A stretch of DNA of 64,000 bases from Myxococcota bacterium. GTDB taxonomy: Bacteria > Myxococcota_A > Polyangia > Nannocystales > Nannocystaceae. A program made the position numbers and the translations under genes. Location: assembly GCA_039028615.1 (NCBI GenBank), contig JBCCHT010000006.1, positions 192,001-256,000 of the forward strand, read 5' to 3'. The notes under the pieces are model-generated. The model worked only from the letters and a program-made list of their open reading frames with translations, did no database searches and was not told where the DNA came from. Within the stretch, counting starts at the first letter, position 1. Each line of letters begins with the position of its first letter. Shown piece after piece: positions 3-16,806 of this stretch.

Positions 3-3000
3 GTGTTCACGGCGGAACCGCGAGTGCACATCGCGGGCAAGGTCATCAGCTACCTGCCCGAGGCCGGCGCCCCCCAAATGGTGACGGTCCGACCGCACGA
101 GGGCCCGCAGGTCGGCCCCGCAGTGGCGCCCGAGGTGCTCTTCGATCAGCCGGTGACCTTGGCGCAGGCCAAGACCCAGCTCGAAGGCGAGGTCGACGGC
201 AAGCCCTGCGAAATCACCCTGGCTCACCCGGAAAAGGACCTCTTCGACGGCGCCGCCGTCGACCGGGAGCACGTGGTGATCGCCCGCCCCGCCAAGGCGC
301 TCGATGCCGGCTCGTCGCTGGTGCTGCGCGTGAGCGAGCCCGACGGCTCCGACGATGTCGAGTTCGCGTACGAGGTCGCCGAGCCCCTCGCCTTCGAGAA
401 GATCGAGTGCGAGGAGGACTACTGGCGCGACGACACCTGCACGTGGAAGGACCAGGTCCTGTCCACGCAAGGCGAGCGCGTCAAGGTTCGCTTCAACAAC
501 CCCATCGGCACCAGCGACAAGGCCCTCGGGCGCAAGCTGAAGGTGAGCCCTCGGGTCGACGAGCTACGGATCCAGCGCGACCCCTGGGCCAGCGACGGCA
601 CGGTCTGGATCTCGGGTCGCTTCAAGCCCTCGACCACCTACCGGGTCGAGCTCGGCCGGGTCAAAGACCGCTTCGGCTCGCGCAGCGCCGCGCCGCTGAA
701 GTTCGAGGTCGACGTGGCCCCCATGGCGTCGAGCGTCTCGATGCCCGAGGGTCAGCAGGTCCTCGACGAGGCCGCCAGCCGCACCTTTGCCATCACCACC
801 CGCAACGTGAAGGAAGCCCGCCTCGACCTGTGGGAGGTCGAGCCCAACGCACGGGCGTGGACCGAGGCGCGTCAGCGCGTCAGCGCCCGCGAGCGCCCCA
901 TCTCCGCCCCGGACCTGAGCATCCCCGTGCGCCCTCGAAGCCGACGCGACAAGCCGGTCACCACCCGCCTCGACCTGCTCGACTCGTTGGCGCCCGGCAA
1001 GACCTACCTCGCGCGCCTCGAGCTCGGCCACGCCGCATTCGGAGCACCGCCGCCCGCCTATCCCGAGTGGGCGATGGCGGCTCGGCCCTCGACCGCTCTC
1101 ATCACCCCCCACGACGACCGAGCGCTGGCCGTGCACGTGCACGAAGGCACCGACAAGACGCTAATCCAGGTCGCGCGGCTCGGCGACGGCAGTCCGGTCC
1201 GCGGCGCGCAGGTGCTGGTCGACGGGACCCGGCAGCCGGGGATCAAGACCAACGCCGATGGTGTCGCCGTGCTGAAGCGACCGCTCGACGCGGACACCGC
1301 TCGACGCGTGCACGTGGTCGAGGTCGAGTCCGACGATCGCCGCGCCGTGCTGGCCCTGGGTGTCGGCTCGCTCGACGAGCGTGAGCTCGCCCCGGAGCTG
1401 GCCGGCACGCCCGCCCCGCTCGAGGATATCCGCGCCCTGCTGTTCAGCGACCGCGGCGTGTACCGCCCCGGCGCCACCGTGGAGCTCAAGGGCATCGTCC
1501 AGTTCCGCAAGAAGGGCCGCCTCCACCCCGCCCCCGCCATGCCGGTCGGGATGCGCATCCACTCCCCCACGGGCAAGGAGGTCTTCGCCGAAGCCAGCGT
1601 GACCTCGACCATGGGCAGCACGGTGGACAGCTTCTCGGTCCCCGCCAACGCCGAGATCGGCCGCTACCGCGTCGAGCTGGTCGCCCCGCTCCGCGCCAAC
1701 GCGGTCATCGCCCGCTACGGCATACAGGTCGCCGAGTTCGAGCCCCCGCGCTTCACCGTCGACGTGGAGACCAAGGCGGCCGAGAGCGGCAAAAAGCTCG
1801 AGGGCACCGTCAACGGCCGCTACCTGTTCGGCGCGGTGATGGAAGACGCGCCCGTGACCTGGACGCTCCGCCGCAGCCCCGCCGCCATGCCCAAGGGTCC
1901 GCTGCCGAGCAAGGGCTTCGTGTTCCGCCCCGTCCGCAGCTACTGGGAGGACGACGACACCGAGGCGTGGGTCCGCGTGGGTGAAGGCCAGCTCGACGCT
2001 CGCGGCCTGCTCGCGGTGACCCCCGCCGTGGAGCTGCCCGCCGACCAGGGCCCGCAGCGCTTCGTGCTCGAGGCCGAGGTCACCGACGAGTCTCACCGTG
2101 CCATCGCCAGCCGCAGCTCGGTGGTCATGCACCCCTCCGAGCGCTACGCCGGCATCAAGCTCGCCGAGCGCTGGCTCGACGTCGGCACTGCGATTCCCAT
2201 GGAAGCCGGCGTCGTCGACCAGAGCGGCGCCACGGTGAGCGGCGTGCCCGTGGAGCTGAGGCTCGAGCACCTCGAGTGGAAGCGCGTGCGCAAGCCCGGC
2301 CCCGGCGGCGCCGCCAGCCAGCGCTGGCACCAGGTCTCCGAAGAGGTCGCGCGCTGCACCACCAAGGGCGCCGACACCTCGGCGTGCTCGCTGGTGCCCA
2401 AGCGCTCGGGCACCTACCGCGTCAGCGCGTGGCTCGACGGGCGCCGAGGCGGCTCGATGCGCGTCTGGGCCTGGGGCCGCGGCTCCACCACCGCCGCGCC
2501 GTCCCCCGGGCGGCGGCTCGAGATCATCGCCGACCGCAGCGGCTACGAGCCCGGCGACACGGCCGAGCTGATGGTCCGCAACCCCTTCCCCGCGGCCACC
2601 GCGATCCTCACCGTGGAGCAGGGCGGCATCCTGCACCACGAGACGCGGCAGGTGACCGAGTCCGCGGTGCGCTTCGACGTGAAGCTGGGCAACGAGCATG
2701 CCCCGCACGCCCACGCCACCGTGACCCTGCTGCCGCGAGACGCCAAGGACGACGCCCGCGTCGACTGGAAGATCGGCGCGGTGCGGTTGCCCGTCGACCT
2801 GAGCGACAACCGGCTCGACGTCACCATCGCCAGCGACCAAGACCGCTACGCCCCCGGTGACTCGGTAGACATCGTGATCGACGTCAGCCAGTCCGGCACC
2901 GCCATCGAGGGGGCCGAGGTCGCGCTGGCCGTGGTGGACGAAGGCGTCCTGCGCATGACCAACTTCCACGCGCCCGATCCCGTCTCCGCCCTCTACCCGG

Positions 3001-5216
3001 GGCAGGGCCTCAACTTCCGCGTGGACGACAGCCGTCGCCTGCTCGCCGAGCAGCTCGGCCGCAGCCATGTCGCGGGTGACGGCAGCGGAGCCGGAAGCCA
3101 CAGCGTGGTCTCCACCCGCAAGAACTTCGTCAAGACCGCCCTGTGGAAGCCGCAGCTGCGGACCGACGCGGACGGCCGGGCCCACGCTCGCTTCACCTTG
3201 CCCGACAACCTCACCCGCTTCCGCATGATGGCGGTGGTGGTCGACACCGAGGGTCGCGGTGGCGTCGACGAGGACGACTTCGAGGTCCAAAAGCCCCTCA
3301 TGGCCATCCCCGCCGTGCCGCGCTTCGCCCTCATCGGCGACAAGTTCGAGGCCGCCGTGCTGGTGCACAACAACCAGGAGACGACCCAGACCGCGGCGGT
3401 GTCCGAGGGCGGGATGACCAAGACCGTCGAGATCGCCGCGGGCGGCCGGGCGCGCGTGCCCTTCGAGCTGTCCTTCTCCAAGGGCGGCACGAAGCTCCTG
3501 CACTTCACCGTCGCCGACGCCGAGGGCACGGTCCGCGACGCCGTCCAGGTGAAGGTGCCCGTCCAGGCCCCCGGCATCGACGAGCGCCCCAATCTGCACG
3601 GCACCTTCCTCGGGAGCCAGGAGGTCACCCTCCGGGTCCCCGAGAAGGTCTTCGCCGACGCGACCGGGGACGACTTCGTCACCGTCACCATGGGCGAGAA
3701 CCTGTGGCCGGAGCTGGGCACTCGCCTGCAGTACCTGCTCGGCTACCCCCACGGCTGCGTCGAGCAGACCACCTCGAGCACGCTGCCGCTGCTGGCCGCG
3801 CGCGAGATTCTGCCGCGCCTGGGCATGACCCCCTACGACGACGACGAGCTGCGCAAGATGATCGAAGCGGGCGTCGTGCGACTGTCCACCATGCGGACCA
3901 GCGCGGGCGGCCTCGCCTACTGGCCGGGCGGACACGAGCCCAACCCCTTCGGCACCGCCTACGCCACCCTGGCCATCGCCCGCGCCCAGGAGCTGGGCAT
4001 CGAGGCCCCCGAGGGCATGGTCGACGGCATGCGCGACTACATGCTGAGCATGCTCGAGAGCGACTCGTTGCCCCATGGCTACGGGGTCGAGGTCCGTGCC
4101 TCCTTGGCGCTGGCGCTCGCCGAGCTCGAGGCCCTGCCGCCCGAGCGCGCCGACTCGCTGTGGGACACCGTGCCCGCGCAAGGAGCCTTCGGCGTCGGCA
4201 CCCTGGCCCTCGCCCTGTCGACGCTGCCCGGACAAGAGGACCGCGTCGAGAGCCTGCTCGACCAGCTCGAGGCCTCGTTCGGTGACGACGGGACCCTCCG
4301 CTCCGAGCGCAAGGACGACGACTTCCTCTACTTCGGTTCCGATCGTCGCACCACGGCGCAGGCCTTGATCGCCTTGCACCGCCTGCGCCCGCAGTCGCGG
4401 GTCGTGCCCCACCTCGTGGGCAACCTCGTCCGCATGACGCCGGGCTACACCACCCAGAGCACCGCGTACTCGCTGCTCGCCCTGGCCGAGAAGATCCAGG
4501 ACGAGGACGGCACCGCGTCTCGTCAGCGGGCCCTGCTCGACGGCGAGGTGCTCACCCCCGAGGTCTCGGGCGCCATGGCGCTGGGCCCCAACATCCGTCG
4601 CTATCGGATCCCGCTGTCGAAGCTGCGCGGGCGCTCGATGACCCTGACCCTGCAGAGCGAGTCCACCCGTGCCCAGGCCTTCATGGTCTCGGCCCGCTGG
4701 CGCCGAGCCGGCGCGGGTACGGAGACGCTCGCCGAGACCACCAGCGAGCACGGCCCCGACCTGTACCGCGTGTACACCGATGCCAAGGGGCGCTCCATCG
4801 ACCCCACCGCCATCGAGCCGGGACAGGTCCTGCGGGTGGTGTTGCTCGCCCGCATGCCGCGGGACCTGCCGAGTGAGCGACGCGGCTACCTGGCCCTGAC
4901 CGATCGGATCCCCGCCGGATTCGAAGCCATGCAACCCGACCTGTGGACGGTGGCCACCGTGCCCGAGCTCGACGACTCGCACCCGCTGTACGACCACCTG
5001 CGGTGGCGCGGAGGCTCAGCGGACCACCTCGAGCTGCGGGACGACCGAGCCCACTTCTACTTCGACCGTGTCTGGGGACAGTGGGCGCATGCCACCTACC
5101 TCATCCGCGCGACCACGCCGGGCATCTTCGCCACGCCGCCGGCCATGGCGGAGCTGATGTACGAGCCGGACAGCGCTGGCTACACCGACGCTCGCAACTT
5201 CACCGTCGTCCAGTAA
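3..5216 (+). CDS. Bacterial alpha-2-macroglobulin family protein (5'-truncated by window)
   Basis: 1737-aa ORF with thioester motif GYPHGCVEQ, MG-domain motifs (SDRGVYRPG, LPDNLTRFRMMAV) and C-terminal AELMYEP; followed by PBP1C. Confidence 0.95.
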   Translation: MFTAEPRVHIAGKVISYLPEAGAPQMVTVRPHEGPQVGPAVAPEVLFDQPVTLAQAKTQLEGEVDGKPCEITLAHPEKDLFDGAAVDREHVVIARPAKALDAGSSLVLRVSEPDGSDDVEFAYEVAEPLAFEKIECEEDYWRDDTCTWKDQVLSTQGERVKVRFNNPIGTSDKALGRKLKVSPRVDELRIQRDPWASDGTVWISGRFKPSTTYRVELGRVKDRFGSRSAAPLKFEVDVAPMASSVSMPEGQQVLDEAASRTFAITTRNVKEARLDLWEVEPNARAWTEARQRVSARERPISAPDLSIPVRPRSRRDKPVTTRLDLLDSLAPGKTYLARLELGHAAFGAPPPAYPEWAMAARPSTALITPHDDRALAVHVHEGTDKTLIQVARLGDGSPVRGAQVLVDGTRQPGIKTNADGVAVLKRPLDADTARRVHVVEVESDDRRAVLALGVGSLDERELAPELAGTPAPLEDIRALLFSDRGVYRPGATVELKGIVQFRKKGRLHPAPAMPVGMRIHSPTGKEVFAEASVTSTMGSTVDSFSVPANAEIGRYRVELVAPLRANAVIARYGIQVAEFEPPRFTVDVETKAAESGKKLEGTVNGRYLFGAVMEDAPVTWTLRRSPAAMPKGPLPSKGFVFRPVRSYWEDDDTEAWVRVGEGQLDARGLLAVTPAVELPADQGPQRFVLEAEVTDESHRAIASRSSVVMHPSERYAGIKLAERWLDVGTAIPMEAGVVDQSGATVSGVPVELRLEHLEWKRVRKPGPGGAASQRWHQVSEEVARCTTKGADTSACSLVPKRSGTYRVSAWLDGRRGGSMRVWAWGRGSTTAAPSPGRRLEIIADRSGYEPGDTAELMVRNPFPAATAILTVEQGGILHHETRQVTESAVRFDVKLGNEHAPHAHATVTLLPRDAKDDARVDWKIGAVRLPVDLSDNRLDVTIASDQDRYAPGDSVDIVIDVSQSGTAIEGAEVALAVVDEGVLRMTNFHAPDPVSALYPGQGLNFRVDDSRRLLAEQLGRSHVAGDGSGAGSHSVVSTRKNFVKTALWKPQLRTDADGRAHARFTLPDNLTRFRMMAVVVDTEGRGGVDEDDFEVQKPLMAIPAVPRFALIGDKFEAAVLVHNNQETTQTAAVSEGGMTKTVEIAAGGRARVPFELSFSKGGTKLLHFTVADAEGTVRDAVQVKVPVQAPGIDERPNLHGTFLGSQEVTLRVPEKVFADATGDDFVTVTMGENLWPELGTRLQYLLGYPHGCVEQTTSSTLPLLAAREILPRLGMTPYDDDELRKMIEAGVVRLSTMRTSAGGLAYWPGGHEPNPFGTAYATLAIARAQELGIEAPEGMVDGMRDYMLSMLESDSLPHGYGVEVRASLALALAELEALPPERADSLWDTVPAQGAFGVGTLALALSTLPGQEDRVESLLDQLEASFGDDGTLRSERKDDDFLYFGSDRRTTAQALIALHRLRPQSRVVPHLVGNLVRMTPGYTTQSTAYSLLALAEKIQDEDGTASRQRALLDGEVLTPEVSGAMALGPNIRRYRIPLSKLRGRSMTLTLQSESTRAQAFMVSARWRRAGAGTETLAETTSEHGPDLYRVYTDAKGRSIDPTAIEPGQVLRVVLLARMPRDLPSERRGYLALTDRIPAGFEAMQPDLWTVATVPELDDSHPLYDHLRWRGGSADHLELRDDRAHFYFDRVWGQWAHATYLIRATTPGIFATPPAMAELMYEPDSAGYTDARNFTVVQ

Positions 5217-5248
5217 GCCCCGCTCGACCAAAAACCGGAGACCACGTC

Positions 5249-7696
5249 ATGGACCGCCGATCCCCGACCCCCCCGAAGCGCACTCGACCTCGCCGCCGCC
5301 GTCGGATCGTCGTCGTCGCGCTCGGCCTGCTGGTGACCGTGGCGTGGATCTCCTGGGCGGCCATGTGGTCGTGGCTCCGCAGCGAGGTCGACCGCCCGCG
5401 CGAGTCGCTGAACGACGACTGGTACTCCGGGCACCGGGTCCTCGACCGCGAGGGCCGGCTGCTCCGCGAGCTGCCCGGTGAAGAGGGTCGACGCGGGCAG
5501 CCGCTCGCGCTCGACGAGGTCGGACCGCGACTCATCGCCGCCACCGTGGTCAGCGAGGACGCGCGCTTCTTCGAGCACGAGGGCGTCGACGGCGGGGCCA
5601 TCGTGCGGGCGGTGGGACAGAACCTTCGGCATCGGCGCGTCGTCTCGGGCGCGAGCACCATCACCCAGCAGCTCGTCAAACTCCTGGATACCCGCGGTCA
5701 GCCCGGCGTCCGCGATCCGTGGGTCAAGCTGCGCGAGGCGGCCCGGGCTGCCAACCTCGACGAGGCGCTCGCCAAAGAAGAAATCCTCGAAGCCTATCTC
5801 AATCGCCTTCCCTACGGCCATGGGCTCGTGGGGCCCGAGGCTGCCGCACGAGGCTACTTCGGCGTGGCCGCCCGCGACCTGTCGTGGAGTCAGGCTGCGT
5901 TCCTCGCCGTGCTGCCGCGCGCCCCCTCGTTCCTCGATCCCTATCGTCACCACGACCGCGTCACCTTGCGGCAGCACGCCCTGCTGCACGCTCTGCACAA
6001 CGCCGGTGAAATCGATGAGCCGCAGCTGCACCGTGCTCTGGCGGAGGCCGTCAAACCGCGTGAGCTCGAGCGTCCTTTTTCCGCTCCGCACCTGGTGGAG
6101 ACCCTGCGCCAGCGCGGTCAGCTGAGCTCGGGCACCACCACGCGCACGACCCTCGACCTGCCGTTGCAGCAGGACGTCGAGGGGCTCGTTCGGACCCACA
6201 TGGCCCGCATGGTCGAGCACGGCGCGGGCGATGCCGCCGTGCTGGTCGTCGACAACGCCACCGCCGAAGTGCTCGCCTACGTCGGCTCAGCCGACTTCCA
6301 TGATCCCACCATCGCCGGCCAGGTCGACATGGTCGTCGCCCCGCGCCAGCCCGGCTCCACGCTCAAGCCCTTCGTCTACGCGCTGGCCTTCGAGCAGGGC
6401 CACTCGCCCGTCGAGCTTTTGGCCGACGTCCCCACCACCTTCCGCGAGGGGCCGGGGCACGTCTACGCCCCCCGCAACTACCACGGCCAATTCACCGGTC
6501 CCGTCTCCGCTCGCGTGGCCTTGGCGACCAGCCTCAACGTGCCCGCCGTGCGCCTCGCCGCCGATCTACCCCACGGCGAGCTGCTCGAGACGCTCCAGAG
6601 TCTGGGTCTGCACAGCCTGACCGAGCCCGCCGAGCACTACGGCCTCGCATTGGCCTTGGGCAGCGGCGAAGTCGGCCTCCGCGAGCTGACCGAGGCCTAT
6701 GTCGCGCTGGCGCATGGCGGTGAACATCGACCCCTGCGCACCATCCTCGACGCCTCGGAAGGCCCCCGCACGCAGGTCTTCGAGCCCTACGCCGCCGCGG
6801 CCATCACCGAGGCGCTGTCGGACCCGATGGCCCGCATTCGCCTGTTGCCCGCCGGCCATCGCCCCTTCGACATCGGCTTTCCCGTCGCGCTCAAGACCGG
6901 CACCAGCTCGGGCTACCGCGACGCCTGGACGGTCGGCTTCACCCACGAGCGTACCGTGGCGGTGTGGATCGGCAACGCCGATGCCACGGCCATGAACGAG
7001 GTCACGGGAGCGGGCGGAGCGGGTCCTTTGTTCGCCGACGTCATGCGGCGCGCCATGGAGACCGTGCCCACTCGCGAGCCGCTGTGGGACTCTTCGCTGC
7101 TGACGACGGTGGAGGTCTGCCCGTTCTCCGGCCAGCGCCCGGGGCCCGCCTGTCCGCATGCGGTTCAGCGCAAGCTTGCGCATGAGCACATTCCCCATGA
7201 GGCGTGCACGATGCATGTGCACGCGACGCCTCGCCCCTCGACCTCGCGGCCTTTCACCTGCGACCCCGAAGGGCATGCCTCCATCGCGGTGCTGCCCGAG
7301 GAGTACAACGGCTGGCTCGACGAGCGGCCGGTCGGGGCGCCGGGCGAGGATGCCAACGGCACGCCGTGGCTGGCTCGTGCGCGGGTTCCGGGCTGCGCCG
7401 AGCAGACCGATCGTCCGACGATGGCGATCGTGGAGCCCGTGAATGGGGCGGTGGTGTGGTCGGGGCGCGATGGTGATGTGGTCGAGTTGCGGGCGGAGCT
7501 TCAGGGGACGACTCGGGAGCCGGACACGGTTGTTTCGGAGGTCGAGTTTGTGGCCGATGGTGAGGTGGTGGCTCGGAGTGCTTGGCCGTATCGGGCGTTG
7601 GTGGAGTTGGGGCCTGGGGATCACCGGGTGGTGGCGCGGCCTCGTCGATCGCGGTCGGGCATGCCTACGCAGGGCGCTCGCTTTAGTGTTCGGTGA
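5249..7696 (+). CDS. pbpC: Penicillin-binding protein 1C (transglycosylase/transpeptidase)
   Basis: N-terminal TM; EDARFFEHEGVD and GASTITQQLVK transglycosylase motifs; STLK, SLN, KTG transpeptidase motifs; ATG 5249 with GGAG upstream; canonical A2M partner. Confidence 0.92.
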   Translation: MDRRSPTPPKRTRPRRRRRIVVVALGLLVTVAWISWAAMWSWLRSEVDRPRESLNDDWYSGHRVLDREGRLLRELPGEEGRRGQPLALDEVGPRLIAATVVSEDARFFEHEGVDGGAIVRAVGQNLRHRRVVSGASTITQQLVKLLDTRGQPGVRDPWVKLREAARAANLDEALAKEEILEAYLNRLPYGHGLVGPEAAARGYFGVAARDLSWSQAAFLAVLPRAPSFLDPYRHHDRVTLRQHALLHALHNAGEIDEPQLHRALAEAVKPRELERPFSAPHLVETLRQRGQLSSGTTTRTTLDLPLQQDVEGLVRTHMARMVEHGAGDAAVLVVDNATAEVLAYVGSADFHDPTIAGQVDMVVAPRQPGSTLKPFVYALAFEQGHSPVELLADVPTTFREGPGHVYAPRNYHGQFTGPVSARVALATSLNVPAVRLAADLPHGELLETLQSLGLHSLTEPAEHYGLALALGSGEVGLRELTEAYVALAHGGEHRPLRTILDASEGPRTQVFEPYAAAAITEALSDPMARIRLLPAGHRPFDIGFPVALKTGTSSGYRDAWTVGFTHERTVAVWIGNADATAMNEVTGAGGAGPLFADVMRRAMETVPTREPLWDSSLLTTVEVCPFSGQRPGPACPHAVQRKLAHEHIPHEACTMHVHATPRPSTSRPFTCDPEGHASIAVLPEEYNGWLDERPVGAPGEDANGTPWLARARVPGCAEQTDRPTMAIVEPVNGAVVWSGRDGDVVELRAELQGTTREPDTVVSEVEFVADGEVVARSAWPYRALVELGPGDHRVVARPRRSRSGMPTQGARFSVR

Positions 7697-7707
7697 TCGA
7701 GTTTAGT

Positions 7708-8465
7708 CCGCGTCATCTCGCGTGCGTACATCCGGTAGGCTCTGCTCTATCGATGGCTGGGAGTGCTTCGAGGCCGCCTGCACGTGTTTCGAGCGAAGGG
7801 CTCGCCTGTTGACGGCTGGATCCCTCCCCGGACGTGCTCGTCGGTCGTTGCACCCGGCTGTTTCGCGACCACATTGGGGAACGACTCCGCGCGACCGGGC
7901 CCCCTCCATCCTACGCGGCTTCGCTTCAGCCCTCCCCCCGCGTCGTCTCCCGTCCGTACAGCGATCAGTTCCTGCTCTATCGATTGCTAGGAATGCTCCG
8001 CATTGGCTTGCGAATGTTCGAGCGAAGGGCTCGCCTGTTGACGGCTGGACCCCTCCCCGGACGTGCTCGTCGGTCGTTGCACCCGGGTGCTTCGCGGCGG
8101 TACTGGGGAACGACTCCGCGCGACCGGGCCCCCTCCATCCTACGCGGCTTCGCTTCAGCCCTCCCCCTGCAGCACCTCCCGTGCGTGCACTCAGCAGTTC
8201 CTGCTCTATCGATGGCCAGGAGTGCTTCGCATTGGCTCGCGGAGTGTTCGAGCGAAGGGCTCGCCTGTTGACGGCTGGACCCCTCCCCGGACGTGCTCGT
8301 CGGTCGTTGCACTCGGCTGCTTCGCGGCCACTTGGGGAACGACTCCGCGCGACCGGGCCCCCTCGATCCTACGCGGCTTCGCTTCAGCCCTCCCCCCGCG
8401 TCGTCTCCCGTGCGAGCACACAACGAACCCAGCTCTGTCGAAGGCCAGGAGCCCTTCGCGTTGGC
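7708..8465 (+). repeat. Tandem array of ~230-bp repeat (about 3.3 copies)
   Basis: CTGCTCTATCGAT recurs at 7742, 7972, 8201 and (degenerate) ~8431; period 229-230 bp; two near-invariant ~60-bp blocks per unit. Confidence 0.95.
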
Positions 8466-8647
8466 GCCGGCGGTCGGCAGAGGCTGTGGCTTGCAGCCAC
8501 TCTCCAGCTGTTCGTAGCCCGTTCTGCAGCCTGGCGGTTTGGAACGTTTGGGCGTTCCGTCTACGGCTACTGCGGCGAAAGTGATTTCCCTGGCATCAGG
8601 CCGAGTCACGTTGATCCCGGAGTTTTGGCCAGTGTTTCCTCGGCCGC

Positions 8648-9169
8648 ATGGTGGGTCGTATCCTGTGGCCGCAGAGTTGTCTCTCGATGAGTTCGTCGAC
8701 CTCCAAGCTCTACCTCGTGCCACCTCTGGAGCCCGGGAGTTTCGACTGGCAGATCTGGTTGACCGAAGACGAGGCGAACGATCCCTACGAGAAATCCGCT
8801 CATGTGAACGACGGCACCCGTTATCTCGTCGTTCTCGAGGGCATGGCACTGGCCGAGTGCACGGCCCACCACCTCTCGGAGGTGTACTTGTGGAGCGATG
8901 GTTCGGGGGACCACGACAACTACGTAGTCCTTCGCATCGAGGTCGTGCTGGACTCCGAGCGCTGGCAGACGCTGCCGTGGGGCCACCGTTCCCCGGGCGA
9001 GCTGTTCTACGGGTGGAGTCACTACGAGGACGAAATGATCCGCGACGACCCCGAAGGCATCGGTTGGAAAATGGCGAGCTGGGAAGAAGTCGAGCAAGCA
9101 CTCGCGGCCGGAGAATGCAGGCTGGAGTACTTCGACGGCCACCGACACCCGCCAAAGCCCCAAGCGTGA
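8648..9169 (+). CDS. Orphan acidic hypothetical protein (alternative start 8687)
   Basis: 173-aa ORF with protein-like composition, acidic and Trp/Tyr-rich; no recognisable motif; lies between the two repeat arrays. Confidence 0.7.
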   Translation: MVGRILWPQSCLSMSSSTSKLYLVPPLEPGSFDWQIWLTEDEANDPYEKSAHVNDGTRYLVVLEGMALAECTAHHLSEVYLWSDGSGDHDNYVVLRIEVVLDSERWQTLPWGHRSPGELFYGWSHYEDEMIRDDPEGIGWKMASWEEVEQALAAGECRLEYFDGHRHPPKPQA

Positions 9170-9265
9170 ACATCAGCTGGACAGGACCACATCGTTCCTC
9201 ATGGTAAGAACTCCCCTGTCACAACTCGTTACACAGACCTTCTCGCCCAGCCCCAAACTACGCTT

Positions 9266-9745
9266 CACCTCGAAGCACTCCCCCCCCCATCGATAGAGCG
9301 GGGCCTGCTGTATGCGCGCACGGGAGATGATGCGCGGGGAGGGCTGAAGCGAAGCCGCGTAGGATGGAGGGGGCCCGGTCGCGCGGAGTCGTTCCCCAAT
9401 GTGGTCGCGAAGCAGCCGGGTATAACTACCGACGAGCACGTCCGGGGAGGGATCCAGCCGTCAACAGGCGAGCCCTTCGTTCGAACACTCGGTAAGCCAC
9501 CTCGAAGCACTCCCCCCCATCGATAGAGCAGGGCCCACTGGCGGTACGCACGGGAGACGACGCACGGGGAGGGCTGAAGCGAAGCCGCGTAGGATGGAGG
9601 GGGCCCGGTCGCGCGGAGTCGTTCCCCAAAGCGGTCGCGAAGCACCCCGCTGCAACTACCGACGAGCACGTCCGGGGAGGGATCCAGCCGTCAACAGGCG
9701 AGCCCTTCGCTCGAACATTCCGCCAGCCCCCTCCAAGCACTCCCG
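9266..9745 (-). repeat. Inverted array of the same ~230-bp repeat (about 2 copies)
   Basis: Reverse complement of the 7708-8465 unit; CACCTCGAAGCACTCCC at 9266, 9498 and degenerate at ~9729. Confidence 0.95.
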
Positions 9746-9813
9746 ACCAACGCCAAAGCCCCCTCGGCAGCTCCCAAGGTGCGCCGTCCCCCCAGCCTCC
9801 CGCCGAGACGAAT

Positions 9814-11031
9814 TCACCCCACCCGCGGCGAATACCGAGCAAAGTACTGCCGCATGAGCCACCGCCGAAACCAAACATTGATCGCCGGAAAGTCGATCTT
9901 CAAAGCCCCATAGACCACCAACGACCGCCCCCCCAAACTAACCCCATACGCAAACCGAGGCCGCAACACATGAGGCCGCAACACCGGCACCTCCCCCCGA
10001 TTCTTCGGCGCATGCTCAGCCAAGATCGCAACATTGCGCGCCACCACCTTCGCCTGCCAAAGGCACTCGATGGCCCGCTGCATCGTCGGCCAGACCCCAT
10101 CTCCGCCCACCACTCGCACCGCATCCCCGCACGCGAAGATCTCCGGATGCGTAGGCTCCGGCGTAGGAAAGCACTGCAACGTCGGCCCCACCGCCAGCCA
10201 ACCATCGTCGGTCCGCGGCAGCCCCAAGTGCTCGAGAATCGGCGCCGGCCGAATCCCCCCCGCCCAGAAGGTCAACGCCGCATCGAGCGATTCCACCGTC
10301 TCCTCGTGACGCAGTTGCACCGACGACGGCCCGGCTTCGACCAGTCGCGTCTCCAAGCGCAGATCGACCCCCTGCCCCACCAACGCCGAGGCCGCCTTCC
10401 GCCCCACCCCGGCCGCGAGCTCGGGCAGTAGCCGGGCCCCAGCACTCACCAACGTGACCGCCGGCGCCCGCCACCCCTCGGGTCGCCGCCGCCGCAGCAA
10501 GGCCAGCTCGCCCGCCAGCTCCACGCCAGAGATGCCACCGCCCACCACCACCATCCGCGGCTCGGCCGATGCATCCCCCTCGGACCCCAGCGTCTCCGCC
10601 AGTCGCGGCCGCGCCTCGTCGATCTCCGCCTCGAACTTGTGCCCGAGCATGTGCTCGGCCCCGGGCATCCCCGGCGGGGGCGTGACCACGGAACCCAAGG
10701 CCACGACCACGAAGCGCGCCGCGATCCGTCGCCCCGACCCCAGCTCGACGACCTTGCGCTCGGGATCGAAGGACACGACCTCGTCGCAGACGAAGTCGGT
10801 GCCCGGCAGCGAGCGCACGAAGTCCTCGGTGGGCAGGATGCTCTGCTCGTCCGTGAGCACGCCGCACAGCCGCTCGTGCACCAAGGGGATGTAGCCATGA
10901 CTGCGCTGCCGATCGACGACGGTGATCTTCAGCGGTTTGGACAGGCGGCGCTGGATCTGGAGCACGACCTCGATGCCGGCGAAGCTCGCCCCCAGCACCA
11001 ATAAGTCGGTGCGCTCAGGTGCCGAAGACAT
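9814..11031 (-). CDS. NAD(P)/FAD-dependent oxidoreductase (NDH-2-like)
   Basis: Two Rossmann motifs (VLGASFAG; VVGGGISGVELAGE) and FACGD. Confidence 0.85.
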   Translation of the reverse strand: MSSAPERTDLLVLGASFAGIEVVLQIQRRLSKPLKITVVDRQRSHGYIPLVHERLCGVLTDEQSILPTEDFVRSLPGTDFVCDEVVSFDPERKVVELGSGRRIAARFVVVALGSVVTPPPGMPGAEHMLGHKFEAEIDEARPRLAETLGSEGDASAEPRMVVVGGGISGVELAGELALLRRRRPEGWRAPAVTLVSAGARLLPELAAGVGRKAASALVGQGVDLRLETRLVEAGPSSVQLRHEETVESLDAALTFWAGGIRPAPILEHLGLPRTDDGWLAVGPTLQCFPTPEPTHPEIFACGDAVRVVGGDGVWPTMQRAIECLWQAKVVARNVAILAEHAPKNRGEVPVLRPHVLRPRFAYGVSLGGRSLVVYGALKIDFPAINVWFRRWLMRQYFARYSPRVG

Positions 11032-11848
11032 GCACCTTGTCCCGGACCGAGGCGGGGAAGCGCTCTTGGACGATGCGCTCGGCATCGGCCTTGGTATGGC
11101 GCGCGCTCCGGTGCACCAACACCAGGGCCTCTCCCTCGAACTGCTCGGCCCGCTCGATCATCTCTTCGACGTGGGTATGGCCCCACTGCCGCACCTGCTC
11201 GGGAGTGCGACGCTCGTCCCAGCCGGTCACCTCGTGCACCAGCACCCGGCACCGCCGCAAGTCGGGCTCCCGATCGAACAGCTCGATCTGCGTGTCACCG
11301 GTGACGCAGATCAGCGGCTCGATGTGCGTCTCGGTGATCGTCTCGCCGCGACGACGACGGGCGCCCAGCTCTTCGCCGGGCAGGCCCTTGAGCGACTCCA
11401 GCAAGCGCTCGCTCCGTCGCTCGAACATCCACGCCAGTGATGGCACACGATGCACCGAACGCAAGCAGCGGGCGTGTCCCTGGCGTAGCGGCACGGTGCT
11501 GCCCGGCGCGTGCCCGTGCAGGTCGACCTCGATGTCGAAGTCCTCGATCTCTTCCCAGGCGGCGAAGATGCGCTGCAGCGGGTCGAGGATTTCCTCGGGG
11601 ACGTGCACGGCCGGCGCCCCGCCCCGCACCATGTGCCGCTGCGAGACCATGTACGGCAGCCCGCCCAGGTGATCCTGGTGCCCGTGCGAGACGAGGATGG
11701 TGTCGAAGCGCATCTGGCCCGGCACCATGGGCGCGGCATCGAACATCAGGCCCAGCTCGGGGACCATCAGGCACGTGCGCACGCCGCCCAGGGCCACCCC
11801 GCGGAGGGTCAGTCCGGCGACCTTCAGCTCATCGTGACCGAGTCTCAT
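11015..11848 (-). CDS. MBL-fold hydrolase, short-arm (TM-type) tRNase Z-like
   Basis: SHGHQDHLGG (HxHxDH), HRVPS, TGDT, GHTH; short arm LKGLPGEELGARRRRGETITE. Confidence 0.75.
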   Translation of the reverse strand: MRLGHDELKVAGLTLRGVALGGVRTCLMVPELGLMFDAAPMVPGQMRFDTILVSHGHQDHLGGLPYMVSQRHMVRGGAPAVHVPEEILDPLQRIFAAWEEIEDFDIEVDLHGHAPGSTVPLRQGHARCLRSVHRVPSLAWMFERRSERLLESLKGLPGEELGARRRRGETITETHIEPLICVTGDTQIELFDREPDLRRCRVLVHEVTGWDERRTPEQVRQWGHTHVEEMIERAEQFEGEALVLVHRSARHTKADAERIVQERFPASVRDKVHVFGT

Positions 11849-14336: not shown

Positions 14337-16679
14337 TTATTGACCGTACGGGTTGTAGCCCCCCGGTCCGGGCGGTTGGCCCGGCTGCGGCGGATACCCC
14401 GGCTGCGGCTGTCCCGGCTGCGGCGGGTACCCCGGTTGGGGCTGTCCCGGCTGCGGCGGGTACCCCGGTTGGGGCTGCGCCATCCCCGGCTGCGGCTGTC
14501 CCGGCTGCGGCGGGTAGCCGCCCGGCTGCGGCATTCCCGGCTGACCCGGGGGCGGAGCCATCCCCGGCTGCGGCTGACCCGGCTGCGGCGGGTAGCCACC
14601 CGGCTGCGGCATTCCCGGCTGACCCGGGGGCGGAGCCATCCCCGGCTGAGGCATCCCCGGCTGACCCGGAGGCGGTGCCATGCCCGGCTGAGGCATTCCC
14701 GGCTGCCCGGGAGGCATCCCCGGCTGACCCGGAGGCATCCCCGGCTGCCCCGGTGCGGGAGCCATGCCCGGCTGCGGCTGACCCGGCTGACCCGGGTATC
14801 CACCCGGCGCCGGCTGACCCGGGGCGTGAGCCATGCCCGGCTGCGGCTGTCCGGGCTGACCCGGCTGCTGGCCGAACTGGCCCGCGTTGGCGGGAACACC
14901 CGGGATGTCCGGGGCCCCCGCAGCCATCGCCTCGAGGGCTTGCTTGGCGGCGGGACGGGGATCGGCCCCCTCCATCTGCTCGCGAACCTCGAAGTAGATC
15001 CGCAGGGTCATCGCGGCAAAGATCGGCGTGATCGCAGCGGTCACCACGTTGGTGACCAAGGAGCTGAGGGCCCCCGCCACTCCGGCCATGTACTCGCCGA
15101 TTCCAGCGAGCAGCCCGAAGATCACACCGACGATGGCGATCGCCACACCGGCCGTGACGAACAGGATCAGCGCGCCGATGATGGTCCGGCCGATGACCGG
15201 CTTCCACAGCTCGAGGCTGCGCATATTGAGGTCGATGAACTTCTTGTCCGTCTCGAACAACCAGATCGCGCCGACGAAGAAGCCGAGCGGGAAGAAGGTG
15301 AACGGACCGACGAGGCCGCCGATGATGCTGGCGACGATGAAGCTGACGATGCTCATGCCGCCGCGCCCCAGCACCGCCTTATAGGCGTCGATGAAGCTGA
15401 CCGGCGTGCCGAAGTGCGCCTGCGCGATGAAGTAGAACACCGCCGGGAAGGTGATGATCCCGGCCAGGTTCAGCAGACCACCGATGATCACGCCGACCGC
15501 GGGAATGGTGACCAGCGCGAACAGCAGCATGATCAAGCCCGCGAGGATCAGCGGGGCACCCACGACCAACACGGACTGGATCAGGTTGGCCATCACCAGC
15601 GAGATGCCGGCCTTGATGTCGTCCATGAACCCGCCGCTGCTGGTCTCGGCCGCCGCGAAGGCTTGGTTCATGCCCTGACCGACTTGCTGCATGCCCTGGT
15701 TGAACTGCTGCCCGGCTTGACCGAACTGTCCTTGGGGCGGCTGCCCGGGCTGGCCCGGCATCCCCGGCTGGCCCGGCGGCTGCCCGGGAGCACCCATGCC
15801 CGGCGGTTGGCCTGGAGCACCCGGCATCCCGGGTTGACCCGGCGGCTGCCCGGGAGCACCCATGCCTGGCGGTTGACCCGGTGCGCCCGGCATCCCCGGT
15901 TGACCCGGCGGCTGCCCGGGAGCGGCCATGCCCGGCGGTTGACCCGGTGCACCGGGCATCCCCGGTTGACCCGGCATCCCTGGCTGTCCGGGGGGCTGAC
16001 CCGGTGCGCCCATCCCAGGCGCGGGAGGTTGGCCGGGCATGCCCGGCTGTCCGGGAGGCTGACCCGGTGCGCCCATGCCCGGCGGTTGCCCCATGGCACC
16101 CGGCGGCTGACCTGGCATGCCCGGCTGCCCCGGGGGTTGCCCCGGTGCGCCCATGCCCGGCGGTTGCGCGGGGGCGCCGGGCGGCTGGCCCGGTGCGCCG
16201 AGGGTGCCGGCGGAAGGAGGATAGCCCGGACGGGGCCCGGCCGACATCGGCGGGTTCACGCCGGGGATCGGCGGCGGAGGTCCTCCACCCGGCGCGGCGC
16301 CGGGCGCTGCTCCGGCAGCCGGCGGCGCGCCACCGGGCGCGAACATGGTGCGGCTCGCCGGCTGTGCGGCGGCCCCCGGAAAGTCGATGTGCTGGACGGT
16401 GATCGTCGACTGACCCAGTCGCACCGCGTTGCCGATCCCCATCTCGACGGGACCGGTGATTCGCTCACCGCTGGGAAGAAACGATCCGTTCGTCGAACCG
16501 AGATCTTGAAAGACGAGCTTGCCGTTAGTGAATCGAAGCTCGGCGTGCCGACCGGACACTTGAGCATCCATGAGGGCGATGTCACCGACATCGCGGCCGA
16601 TGACGATCGACTCCTTGTCGAACGGCTTAGTTTCCGGGGGACGTCCCGAGTACTGGACGTACAGGGTGTATAGCGCCAT
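14337..16679 (-). CDS. FHA-domain membrane protein with Pro/Gly/Gln-rich repeats
   Basis: FHA motifs [18 protein letters not shown]; central multi-TM block; long PGQPGM and PQPGYP repeats; AGGAG SD. Confidence 0.9.
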
Positions 16680-16806
16680 GTGGCTCCTGGGGTGCGTGGG
16701 CTCCCGGAGTGTCACAAATGGCGGCGGTCTCGCGCAACTCGCTGCGCACAGATTCTCGACCGCGTCGGATCGAATGTTCGCGAACCGGTCCGCCCGGCTC
16801 AGCGAG

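Follow-up and report, generated by a model that had tools for sequence, protein, structure and literature searches.

Why should two convergent host genes lose cytosine from the synonymous sites of their last codons, each on the strand that reads into an adjacent array of repeats? The locus lies in a 64,000-nucleotide stretch of the genome of a marine Myxococcota bacterium (Nannocystaceae; assembly GCA_039028615.1, contig JBCCHT010000006.1, positions 192,001 to 256,000), which we call the window; the host genome (G000) is 12.3 Mb long at roughly 68% GC. One of the genes is pbpC and the other encodes a pyridine nucleotide-disulphide oxidoreductase; between them two arrays of the same repeat, inverted with respect to each other, enclose a short orphan open reading frame (ORF) (Table 1). 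The C-depletion is real and is caused by the repeat, a hairpin found in many places in the genome, and the resulting compositional halo is probably best read as the mutational footprint of chronic exposure of one DNA strand, exposure being the cause that we infer. A search of the literature outside subscription journals and supplements returned no description of such halos.

Cytosine loss at gene ends is tied to the repeat

The third positions of 7442-7696 in the pbpC tail (85 codons including the stop) are G50 T24 C9 A2, and those of 10080-9814 in the oxidoreductase tail (89 codons) are G55 T22 C11 A1, with the gain of G exceeding that of T in both. An initial annotation of this DNA had counted 24 T against 9 C and 22 T against 11 C by hand, which is exact, and had described both frames as open, as they are. 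It placed the shift in about the last 84 and 88 codons respectively; these tails are confirmed, but both shifts reach further, beginning ~112 codons from the end of pbpC and covering ~280 codons of the oxidoreductase gene. Compared with third-position C (C3) of ~0.5, binomial P values with codons treated as independent are 1e-15 (pbpC) and 1e-13 (oxidoreductase), and by our own gene calls on G000 (9,249 genes) both tails are within the eight lowest of 5,929 genes of at least 250 codons. The annotation had also allowed for a sequencing or assembly error: in a public marine metagenome run (X1), contigs that cover 5300-7617 and 9691-11500, both tails included, have no differing letters at a depth of ~18. 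X1 may be the source sample, so that its agreement is a check on the assembly and not on independence.

A profile built from the window's repeat unit gave 106 matches in 68 arrays in G000, falling into families A and B. Tails with at most 11 C in the last 84 third positions occur in 15 of the 5,929 genes: eight of the 29 genes ending at an A/B copy in matching orientation, three of three at Y1 genes (see below), two of six at hairpin family D, one of 13 at family C, and one of 5,878 others. The A/B count alone is not circular, because skew peaks had helped to bring families C and D and the Y1 ends to notice. Four-fold C in the last 28 codons is 0.26 in 28 genes with a repeat downstream and 0.49-0.50 in repeat-free genes (2,251 convergent, 3,618 co-directional), so the codon shift that could have been a property of gene ends at large is not seen there. 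Nor is there a halo at 244 convergent gene ends with strong short hairpins, or as a general effect of 3' ends, convergent pairs or long gaps. Raw skew peaks in G000 lie near A/B copies in 33 of 65 cases, 32 of the 33 with matching sign; by a gene-level skew statistic, 143 of 170 peaks lie away from A/B copies, and codon bias therefore also produces local peaks. The sole very C-poor tail (C10, T13) without a recognised element within 500 nt is at G000:C20:157272-160092, and the 1.5-kb gap that follows it may hold another repeat family.

Geometry and polarity of the halo

It is the plus strand of the repeat, on which the core is read 5' to 3', that is skewed, from ~650 nt upstream to ~2 kb downstream, whatever the strand of the host gene or the direction of the fork. 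Genes reading into the repeat have four-fold C of 0.21 and G of 0.65, and opposite-strand genes downstream of it have C of 0.70-0.77 and G of 0.13-0.19, with two-fold A of 0.42-0.61 against a background of 0.15. With skews corrected for local replichore skew, 39 of the 44 measurable arrays are shifted to G in the 500 nt upstream (mean +0.275), and 35 of the 44 lie above the 95th percentile of control gene ends (448-487 measurable among 500 sampled of 836; mean +0.017, near zero). Downstream (0-1200 nt) 15 of 17 measurable arrays are positive (+0.21), and 800-3000 nt upstream 47 of 58 are slightly negative. A joint fit to 88 elements runs from -0.05 to -0.07 between -2750 and -750, then through +0.10, +0.31 and +0.43 as the core is approached, continues at +0.26 to +0.33 for the first 750 nt downstream and is near zero by 3 kb. 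Where the upstream gene is divergent, seven of ten arrays exceed the control 95th percentile.

The upstream halo is equal in both replichore orientations, at +0.32 (0.23 to 0.38) and +0.34 (0.27 to 0.40), a test that classified 69 of 84 elements (37 with the plus strand as leading template, 32 as lagging) and left out 15. Both outer flanks are shifted by at least +0.2 in four of the seven measurable inverted pairs, that of the window included. Since the skew follows the repeat's plus strand, the window's mirror image amounts to a pair of polar halos set back to back. Their inner halves fall on the cargo ORF, with third-position T11/A3 in its first third against T2/A13 in its last (P=0.0007). 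It had been proposed that the C-poor strand is the one reading into the array. This is true, but the depletion is not confined there, and because the same strand stays C-poor through a single repeat and 1-2 kb beyond it, the tails of genes that end on its inner side are C-rich. The broader proposal of a repeat-directed, strand-specific shift stands, the skew following repeat orientation genome-wide.

Substitution pattern and timing

On the plus strand C falls, A falls, and G and T rise. The log-odds shifts in the halo are +1.25 (G/C), +0.95 (T/A), +1.34 (T/C), +0.86 (G/A), +1.55 (two-fold T/C) and +0.84 (two-fold G/A), and the leading-minus-lagging shifts for the same ratios in the same order are 0.37, 0.19, 0.31, 0.25, 0.33 and 0.25; the halo vector has the sign of the replication skew in six of six ratios and is 3-5 times larger. 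C drops after A, C, G and T alike, and least after T at four-fold sites. At first positions CTG to TTG shifts (log odds ratio 1.53) and CGG to AGG is flat (0.18), a contrast as expected for transitions rather than for selection against C. Deamination of C, the process first suggested, is not the whole change, since C-to-G dominates at four-fold sites and A-to-G is shifted too; a sequence-specific deaminase finds no place here, with all contexts hit and no TpC preference.

Polarisation against orthologues, which both genes have in five of five same-genus genomes, shows that consensus C has been lost from the tails. In pbpC it is retained at 4 of 18 tail sites and 112 of 140 body sites (P=2e-6), and in the oxidoreductase gene at 7 of 24 tail sites compared with 13 of 20 (P=0.03). 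Orthologous tails without the element are C-rich in five of five cases for pbpC and four of five for the oxidoreductase. One relative (G001) carries the empty site, with the two stop codons abutting and both tails normal, from which it follows that the loss of C came after insertion. Within G000 the halo increases with copy divergence (rho 0.40, P=0.019, n=34). Halos are strong in G004 (10 copies), and G035 has 18 near-identical young copies in unskewed DNA with no halo. MutL is present in five of five genomes tested, haloed or not.

A proposed model of one-strand exposure

After a hairpin copy lands, its plus strand would repeatedly become single-stranded, from ~650 nt upstream to ~2 kb downstream, and would behave like a long-lived lagging-strand template. 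Such exposure would drive the loss of C and A and the gain of G and T at free sites over evolutionary time while selection preserves the proteins, and an inverted pair of hairpins would yield a mirror image as in the window. Deamination of the exposed strand and an excess of G and T are described in PMC10030826 (here and below, papers are cited from the accessible parts of their text). Within the exposure reading, the trigger may, with a probability not far short of even, be a Y1-HUH or similar nuclease that nicks or gaps the GTAG-tagged minus strand; a replication block at the hairpin, whether protein-free or through host proteins, or local re-priming there, is a doubtful candidate, and an R-loop of plus-strand RNA, persisting because the lineage lacks Rho, an unlikely one. 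The TnpA-REP enzyme cuts the tagged strand either side of its hairpin (PMC3479197), and cuts in that style would be predicted to expose the other strand on both sides, as is seen. It is conceivable, although we think it improbable, that the hairpin acts in cis as the signal for a selfish element of a class not yet described, one that makes a fork-independent polar gap or local priming in each generation (a miniature origin, with its switch ~700 nt upstream) and so rewrites host synonymous sites over ~3 kb. If true, the Planctomycetota internal-loop module before four-helix-bundle genes and the Y1-HUH halos, both described below, would point to one shared protein-DNA mechanism.

Several observations weigh against exposure as the cause. 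C-to-G, which dominates replication skew too, is no product of deamination and would have to arise indirectly or from a different lesion. Five of the 44 arrays are negative upstream, and the reversed zone at 800-3000 nt is an imperfect mirror, with two-fold G/A not reversed, and is not clear in G004 or G002. Halos in G002 are weak and mixed (22 copies measured of 36 matches), copies in G068 and in Planctomycetota have none, and one oxidoreductase orthologue of the five (L226) is G-rich in its tail and has no A/B hairpin match. In 35 of 60 family A copies, changes at C are not in excess among the recent differences (in the variable part, C>T 30/598 and G>A 43/1110, P=0.26); C>G is equal, the only excesses being of A>G relative to T>C and of G>T relative to C>A. 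Protein identity in the tails is no lower than between relatives. A metagenome scan (15 stretches) gave no close strain pair for rate comparison, and L175/L181, the only pair that has halos, is close to saturation.

Weighing the alternatives

An element with an effect resembling ours is the E. coli Replication Risk Sequence (RRS; 222 bp), with gaps of ~650-700 nt that are highest at the element and trail off (PMC10592627, PMC13308219). On an RRS-type reading, a hairpin on the lagging-strand template would block an Okazaki fragment and leave a gap 5' of itself, and the upstream halo does match such a gap in side, strand and length. RRS gaps, however, are lagging only; because our halo is independent of fork direction, a pure RRS reading is contradicted. 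The shift of both outer flanks in inverted pairs and the same-strand halo downstream are likewise at odds with it, as is the canonical four-run G-quadruplex (G4) pattern, found in none of 44 family A cores on either strand (and in 3 of 18 family B windows), and we hold this explanation to be quite unlikely. That the element enters regions already skewed is very improbable. The pbpC-oxidoreductase junction (window 7697-9813) is indeed a hot spot for insertion, since four relatives (G002-G005) have unlike inserts of 2-13 kb there, yet the orthologous tails lacking the element are C-rich with the one exception noted, the 18 young G035 copies sit in unskewed DNA, and the empty site in G001 contradicts such a preference at the window locus. 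An assembly or sequencing artefact, or a general trait of gene ends, convergent pairs or hairpins, has negligible probability: many copies do lie near the end of a contig, within 900 nt for 21 array ends, but the X1 contigs are identical at both tails, G004 shows the same halo, and it is absent from the repeat-free genes, from the 244 convergent ends with short hairpins and from six copies of a long perfect-palindrome miniature inverted-repeat transposable element (MITE; family F).

Selection offers two further alternatives. A C-rich, G-poor minus strand might be favoured if it let Rho stop antisense transcripts leaving the element; the minus strand beside the element has this composition, and repetitive extragenic palindromes (REPs) are partly Rho-dependent terminators in E. 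coli (10.64898/2026.03.23.713779). Rho itself is absent, however: PF07497 has no match in G000 (0/1) or in five genomes that include a one-contig genome (0/5), and TIGR00767 is above cut-off in none of 61 family genomes, near-complete assemblies included, but in 8 of 14 controls. Given the absence of Rho from G000 and these 61 genomes, selection through Rho is excluded, to within a very slight residual probability; the minus strand moreover gains A and loses T, and the skew extends more than 1 kb into translated sense strands. The Rho-less lineage thus removes the main selective rival. PMC11347177 has, in its accessible part, one Rho-less myxobacterium among 12, and absence across the family genomes searched here is wider than that single case. 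Selection on composition by some route other than Rho, such as avoidance of RNA or single-stranded DNA (ssDNA) pairing with the hairpin, or favouring of G-rich sequence that forms R-loops, is unlikely but is the best placed of these alternatives. It would accommodate tail proteins that are not more diverged, recent repeat differences without a C-specific excess, and a larger gain of G than of T at four-fold sites; it sits poorly with an effect that spans 2.5 kb and stays on one DNA strand whether genes are sense or antisense, with the match of all six ratios to the mutational replication vector, and with a shift of CTG to TTG that CGG to AGG does not share. Chronic exposure of the plus strand remains the reading that we favour.

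The repeat as a mobile hairpin

Arrays lie mostly after gene 3' ends (50 of 60); 26 of the 68 are multi-copy, 40 of the 68 have an inverted partner within 6 kb, and the cargoes between inverted pairs are mutually unrelated. The element that makes up the arrays is a mobile, non-coding, rod-like hairpin, which occurs singly, in tandem or as inverted pairs around cargo. Its model has a length of 133 with 24 pairs in seven helices, and 69 distinct copies from relatives back the rod, with 93% of cells paired and 18 pairs changed on both sides; covariation is 0.377 for the rod compared with 0.152 shuffled and at most 0.073 when slid, in an alignment that had been fitted to the rod structure. Single-sequence folding of the unit is no better than that of shuffles (z +1.1 to +2.2), so that the rod is visible only from the alignment. 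By strand, family A folds equally on both and family B slightly better on plus. On the minus strand the stem foot carries GTAG in 74, GCAG in 14 and neither in 7 of 95 matches in G000, and in 41, 25 and 6 of 72 matches in relatives; the search pattern allowed only TAC/TGC, hence these counts are partly anchored, and the tag columns are invariant in family A. The model has matches in 8 of 60 family genomes, and model R1 has none in 150 phylum-wide genomes with 22 candidates scored per genome. Rfam gave no match at E<=1 in 7300-10200, and one sub-threshold match, off the hairpin, in six other loci.

Each unit of the window's plus array holds a ~133-nt rod-like core, with core 5' motifs at 7799, 8028 and 8258 and GTAG at the stem foot on the opposite strand at 7911-7914, 8140-8143 and 8369-8372. 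In the minus array the core 5' ends are at 9474 and 9704 and GTAG is at 9359-9362 and 9589-9592. The inverted arms of the two arrays are 84-89% complementary. There was no plasmid match, and the stretch 6500-11000 has no promoter-like site.

Further hairpin families, C (20 copies) and D (15), share motifs with A and B (for example at G000:C1:32397-36774 and C53:821-1546); the halo of family C is the same as that of A/B and that of family D is weak and mixed. Inverted hairpin pairs ~700 nt apart bracket one and the same degraded cargo in G035 (L127-L136, for example L127:3238-4191), an arrangement that is a young composite MITE; the cargo resembles what we take to be the remnant of an IS1380-type transposase start. 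At G000:C18:17900-19650 a non-coding region with several copies of a 16-nt palindrome, presumably the parS consensus, has mirror-skewed flanks without an A/B match, and the orthologous L175 and L181 carry a family B hairpin there. Planctomycetota records (L185-L188, L191, L197-L199, L201, L203 and L206; for example L188:3470-3955) hold a related rod hairpin with a shared internal-loop module, directly preceding a TIGR02436 four-helix-bundle gene whose ribosome-binding site is in the hairpin's 3' arm. This hairpin is possibly an undescribed cis-regulatory or mobility signal.

Candidate mobilisers

The two Y1-HUH genes of G000 (G000:C13:40464-41393 and G000:C8:231440-232330; 310 aa, RAYT-like) lie between convergent host genes. 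Each is bounded by short inverted ends of its own and sits in a strong mirror halo, and all four flanks show the halo profile found at the hairpin (+0.32 to +0.47). The hairpin model has no match at these two loci, nor at 12 further Y1 loci in G002 and G068, and a motif common to the Y1 ends and the hairpin was not established. Against the NCBIfam RAYT model NF047646 the two genes score 34 bits (cut-off 80), the protein has no PDB match, and PF01797 has no match in G001, G004 and G035 (72-93% complete). The Y1 family reaches up to 31 copies in other genomes of the host's family; at 29 Y1 loci in these genomes the mean flank skew is small, with a clear mirror in a minority, and two G002 genes are IS200-like, in foreign DNA and of ambiguous skew. 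Searches of G000 for other mobilisers found no DUF559 and no four-helix bundle PF05635, three GIY-YIG matches (the small one without a halo) and one IS110-type gene with no hairpin there. The 126 proteins neighbouring repeats include no recurring family beyond five pairwise matches. The single reverse transcriptase of G000 (L051; G000:C16:158387-162022), with a structured upstream region and a neighbour gene, looks retron-like. A retron origin of the repeat, through multicopy single-stranded DNA (msDNA), was rejected, this single locus having no repeat match.

Comparison with known systems

Among the nearest known systems are REP/REPIN-RAYT systems (PMC3479197, PMC3733652, PMC3116915, PMC5581495), with which our repeat shares an intergenic imperfect hairpin mostly after 3' ends, occurrence as singles, tandem clusters or inverted doublets, and a RAYT-like gene in the same genome. 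A GTAG/GCAG tag at the stem foot of one strand, found here in 88 of 95 matches, is a REP hallmark (PMC3733652, PMC3479197). Unlike REPs of 20-40 nt, our core is ~133 nt, and the Y1 genes are not flanked by the hairpin and fall below the NCBIfam RAYT cut-off. No flanking compositional halo was found in the accessible REP literature ('skew' is absent from the accessible text of PMC5581495 and unrelated in that of PMC3116915).

The RRS is likewise a GC-rich structured repeat of ~220 nt, and its one-strand gap, ~650 nt long on the 5' side and peaking at the element, resembles our compositional halo in shape; the RRS differs in being two fixed G4 sites that act on the lagging template only, against 68 dispersed arrays of a mobile hairpin without canonical G4, active in both fork orientations and on both sides (PMC10592627, PMC13308219). 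Replication strand asymmetry, or GC skew, has the same substitution vector, and the sign change ~700 nt upstream of our repeat resembles a miniature origin, but the halo is confined to ~3 kb, is 3-5 times as large as the full leading-lagging difference, goes with the repeat and is independent of replichore (PMC10030826). A small non-coding repeat can thus reshape the codon usage of neighbouring core genes several-fold more than replication does. If one-strand exposure is the cause, the halo would be a sequence-only read-out of ssDNA sites by which genomes could be screened for gap-forming elements, and it could test what domesticated RAYT/REP systems do in cells; no such screens exist according to the accessible text of the RRS paper.

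The msDNA-like repeats of Nannocystis exedens (Retron-Nex1/Ne160; PMC6868368), compared by description, are also long hairpin repeats of a myxobacterial chromosome with no adjacent reverse transcriptase. The upstream structure of the single reverse transcriptase of G000, in contrast, is its own and has no match to the repeat.

Strand-coordinated mutation clusters occur at resected breaks (kataegis, APOBEC), and break resection does not give a same-strand effect on both sides of a single site. The mirror-image, one-strand loss of C around our inverted pair resembles such clusters, which PMC10030826 mentions, but single copies here affect the same strand on both sides and there is no preference for TpC.

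Features of the window

Table 1. Coordinates of the repeat arrays, host genes and skewed regions in the window
Feature	Position	Strand	Evidence
pbpC (transglycosylase + transpeptidase)	5249..7696	+	Pfam PF00912, PF00905; reads into plus array
Weak reversed zone past halo, top strand C-rich	5900..6950	+	Four-fold sites C144:G62 vs C17:G51 at 7300-7696
C-depleted halo, last ~112 codons of pbpC	7361..7696	+ (top strand)	C3 2-6 per 28 codons vs 10-21 earlier in gene
Plus array, three ~229-nt units	7728..8465	+	Tandem Repeats Finder (TRF) period 229, 3.0 copies; nhmmer; covariance model match 8026-8157
Cargo ORF, 173 aa, orphan	8648..9169	+	No Pfam/NCBIfam family; Atlas best 0.89, unnamed
Minus array, two ~230-nt units inverted to plus array	9266..9762	-	TRF period 230, 2.1 copies
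C-depleted halo, oxidoreductase tail	9814..10650	- (bottom strand)	C3 1-7 per 28 codons, last 280 codons; strongest in last ~90
Pyridine nucleotide-disulphide oxidoreductase	9814..11031	-	Pfam PF07992; reads into minus array

Immediately 5' of pbpC is a bacterial alpha-2-macroglobulin gene, the two genes together covering window 3-7696 in what is presumably the usual pairing. A Pro/Gly/Gln-rich repeat gene at 14337-16715 has a C3 count of 14 in its last 84 codons with T not raised, and its low C3 probably stems from the amino-acid repeats rather than from a halo.

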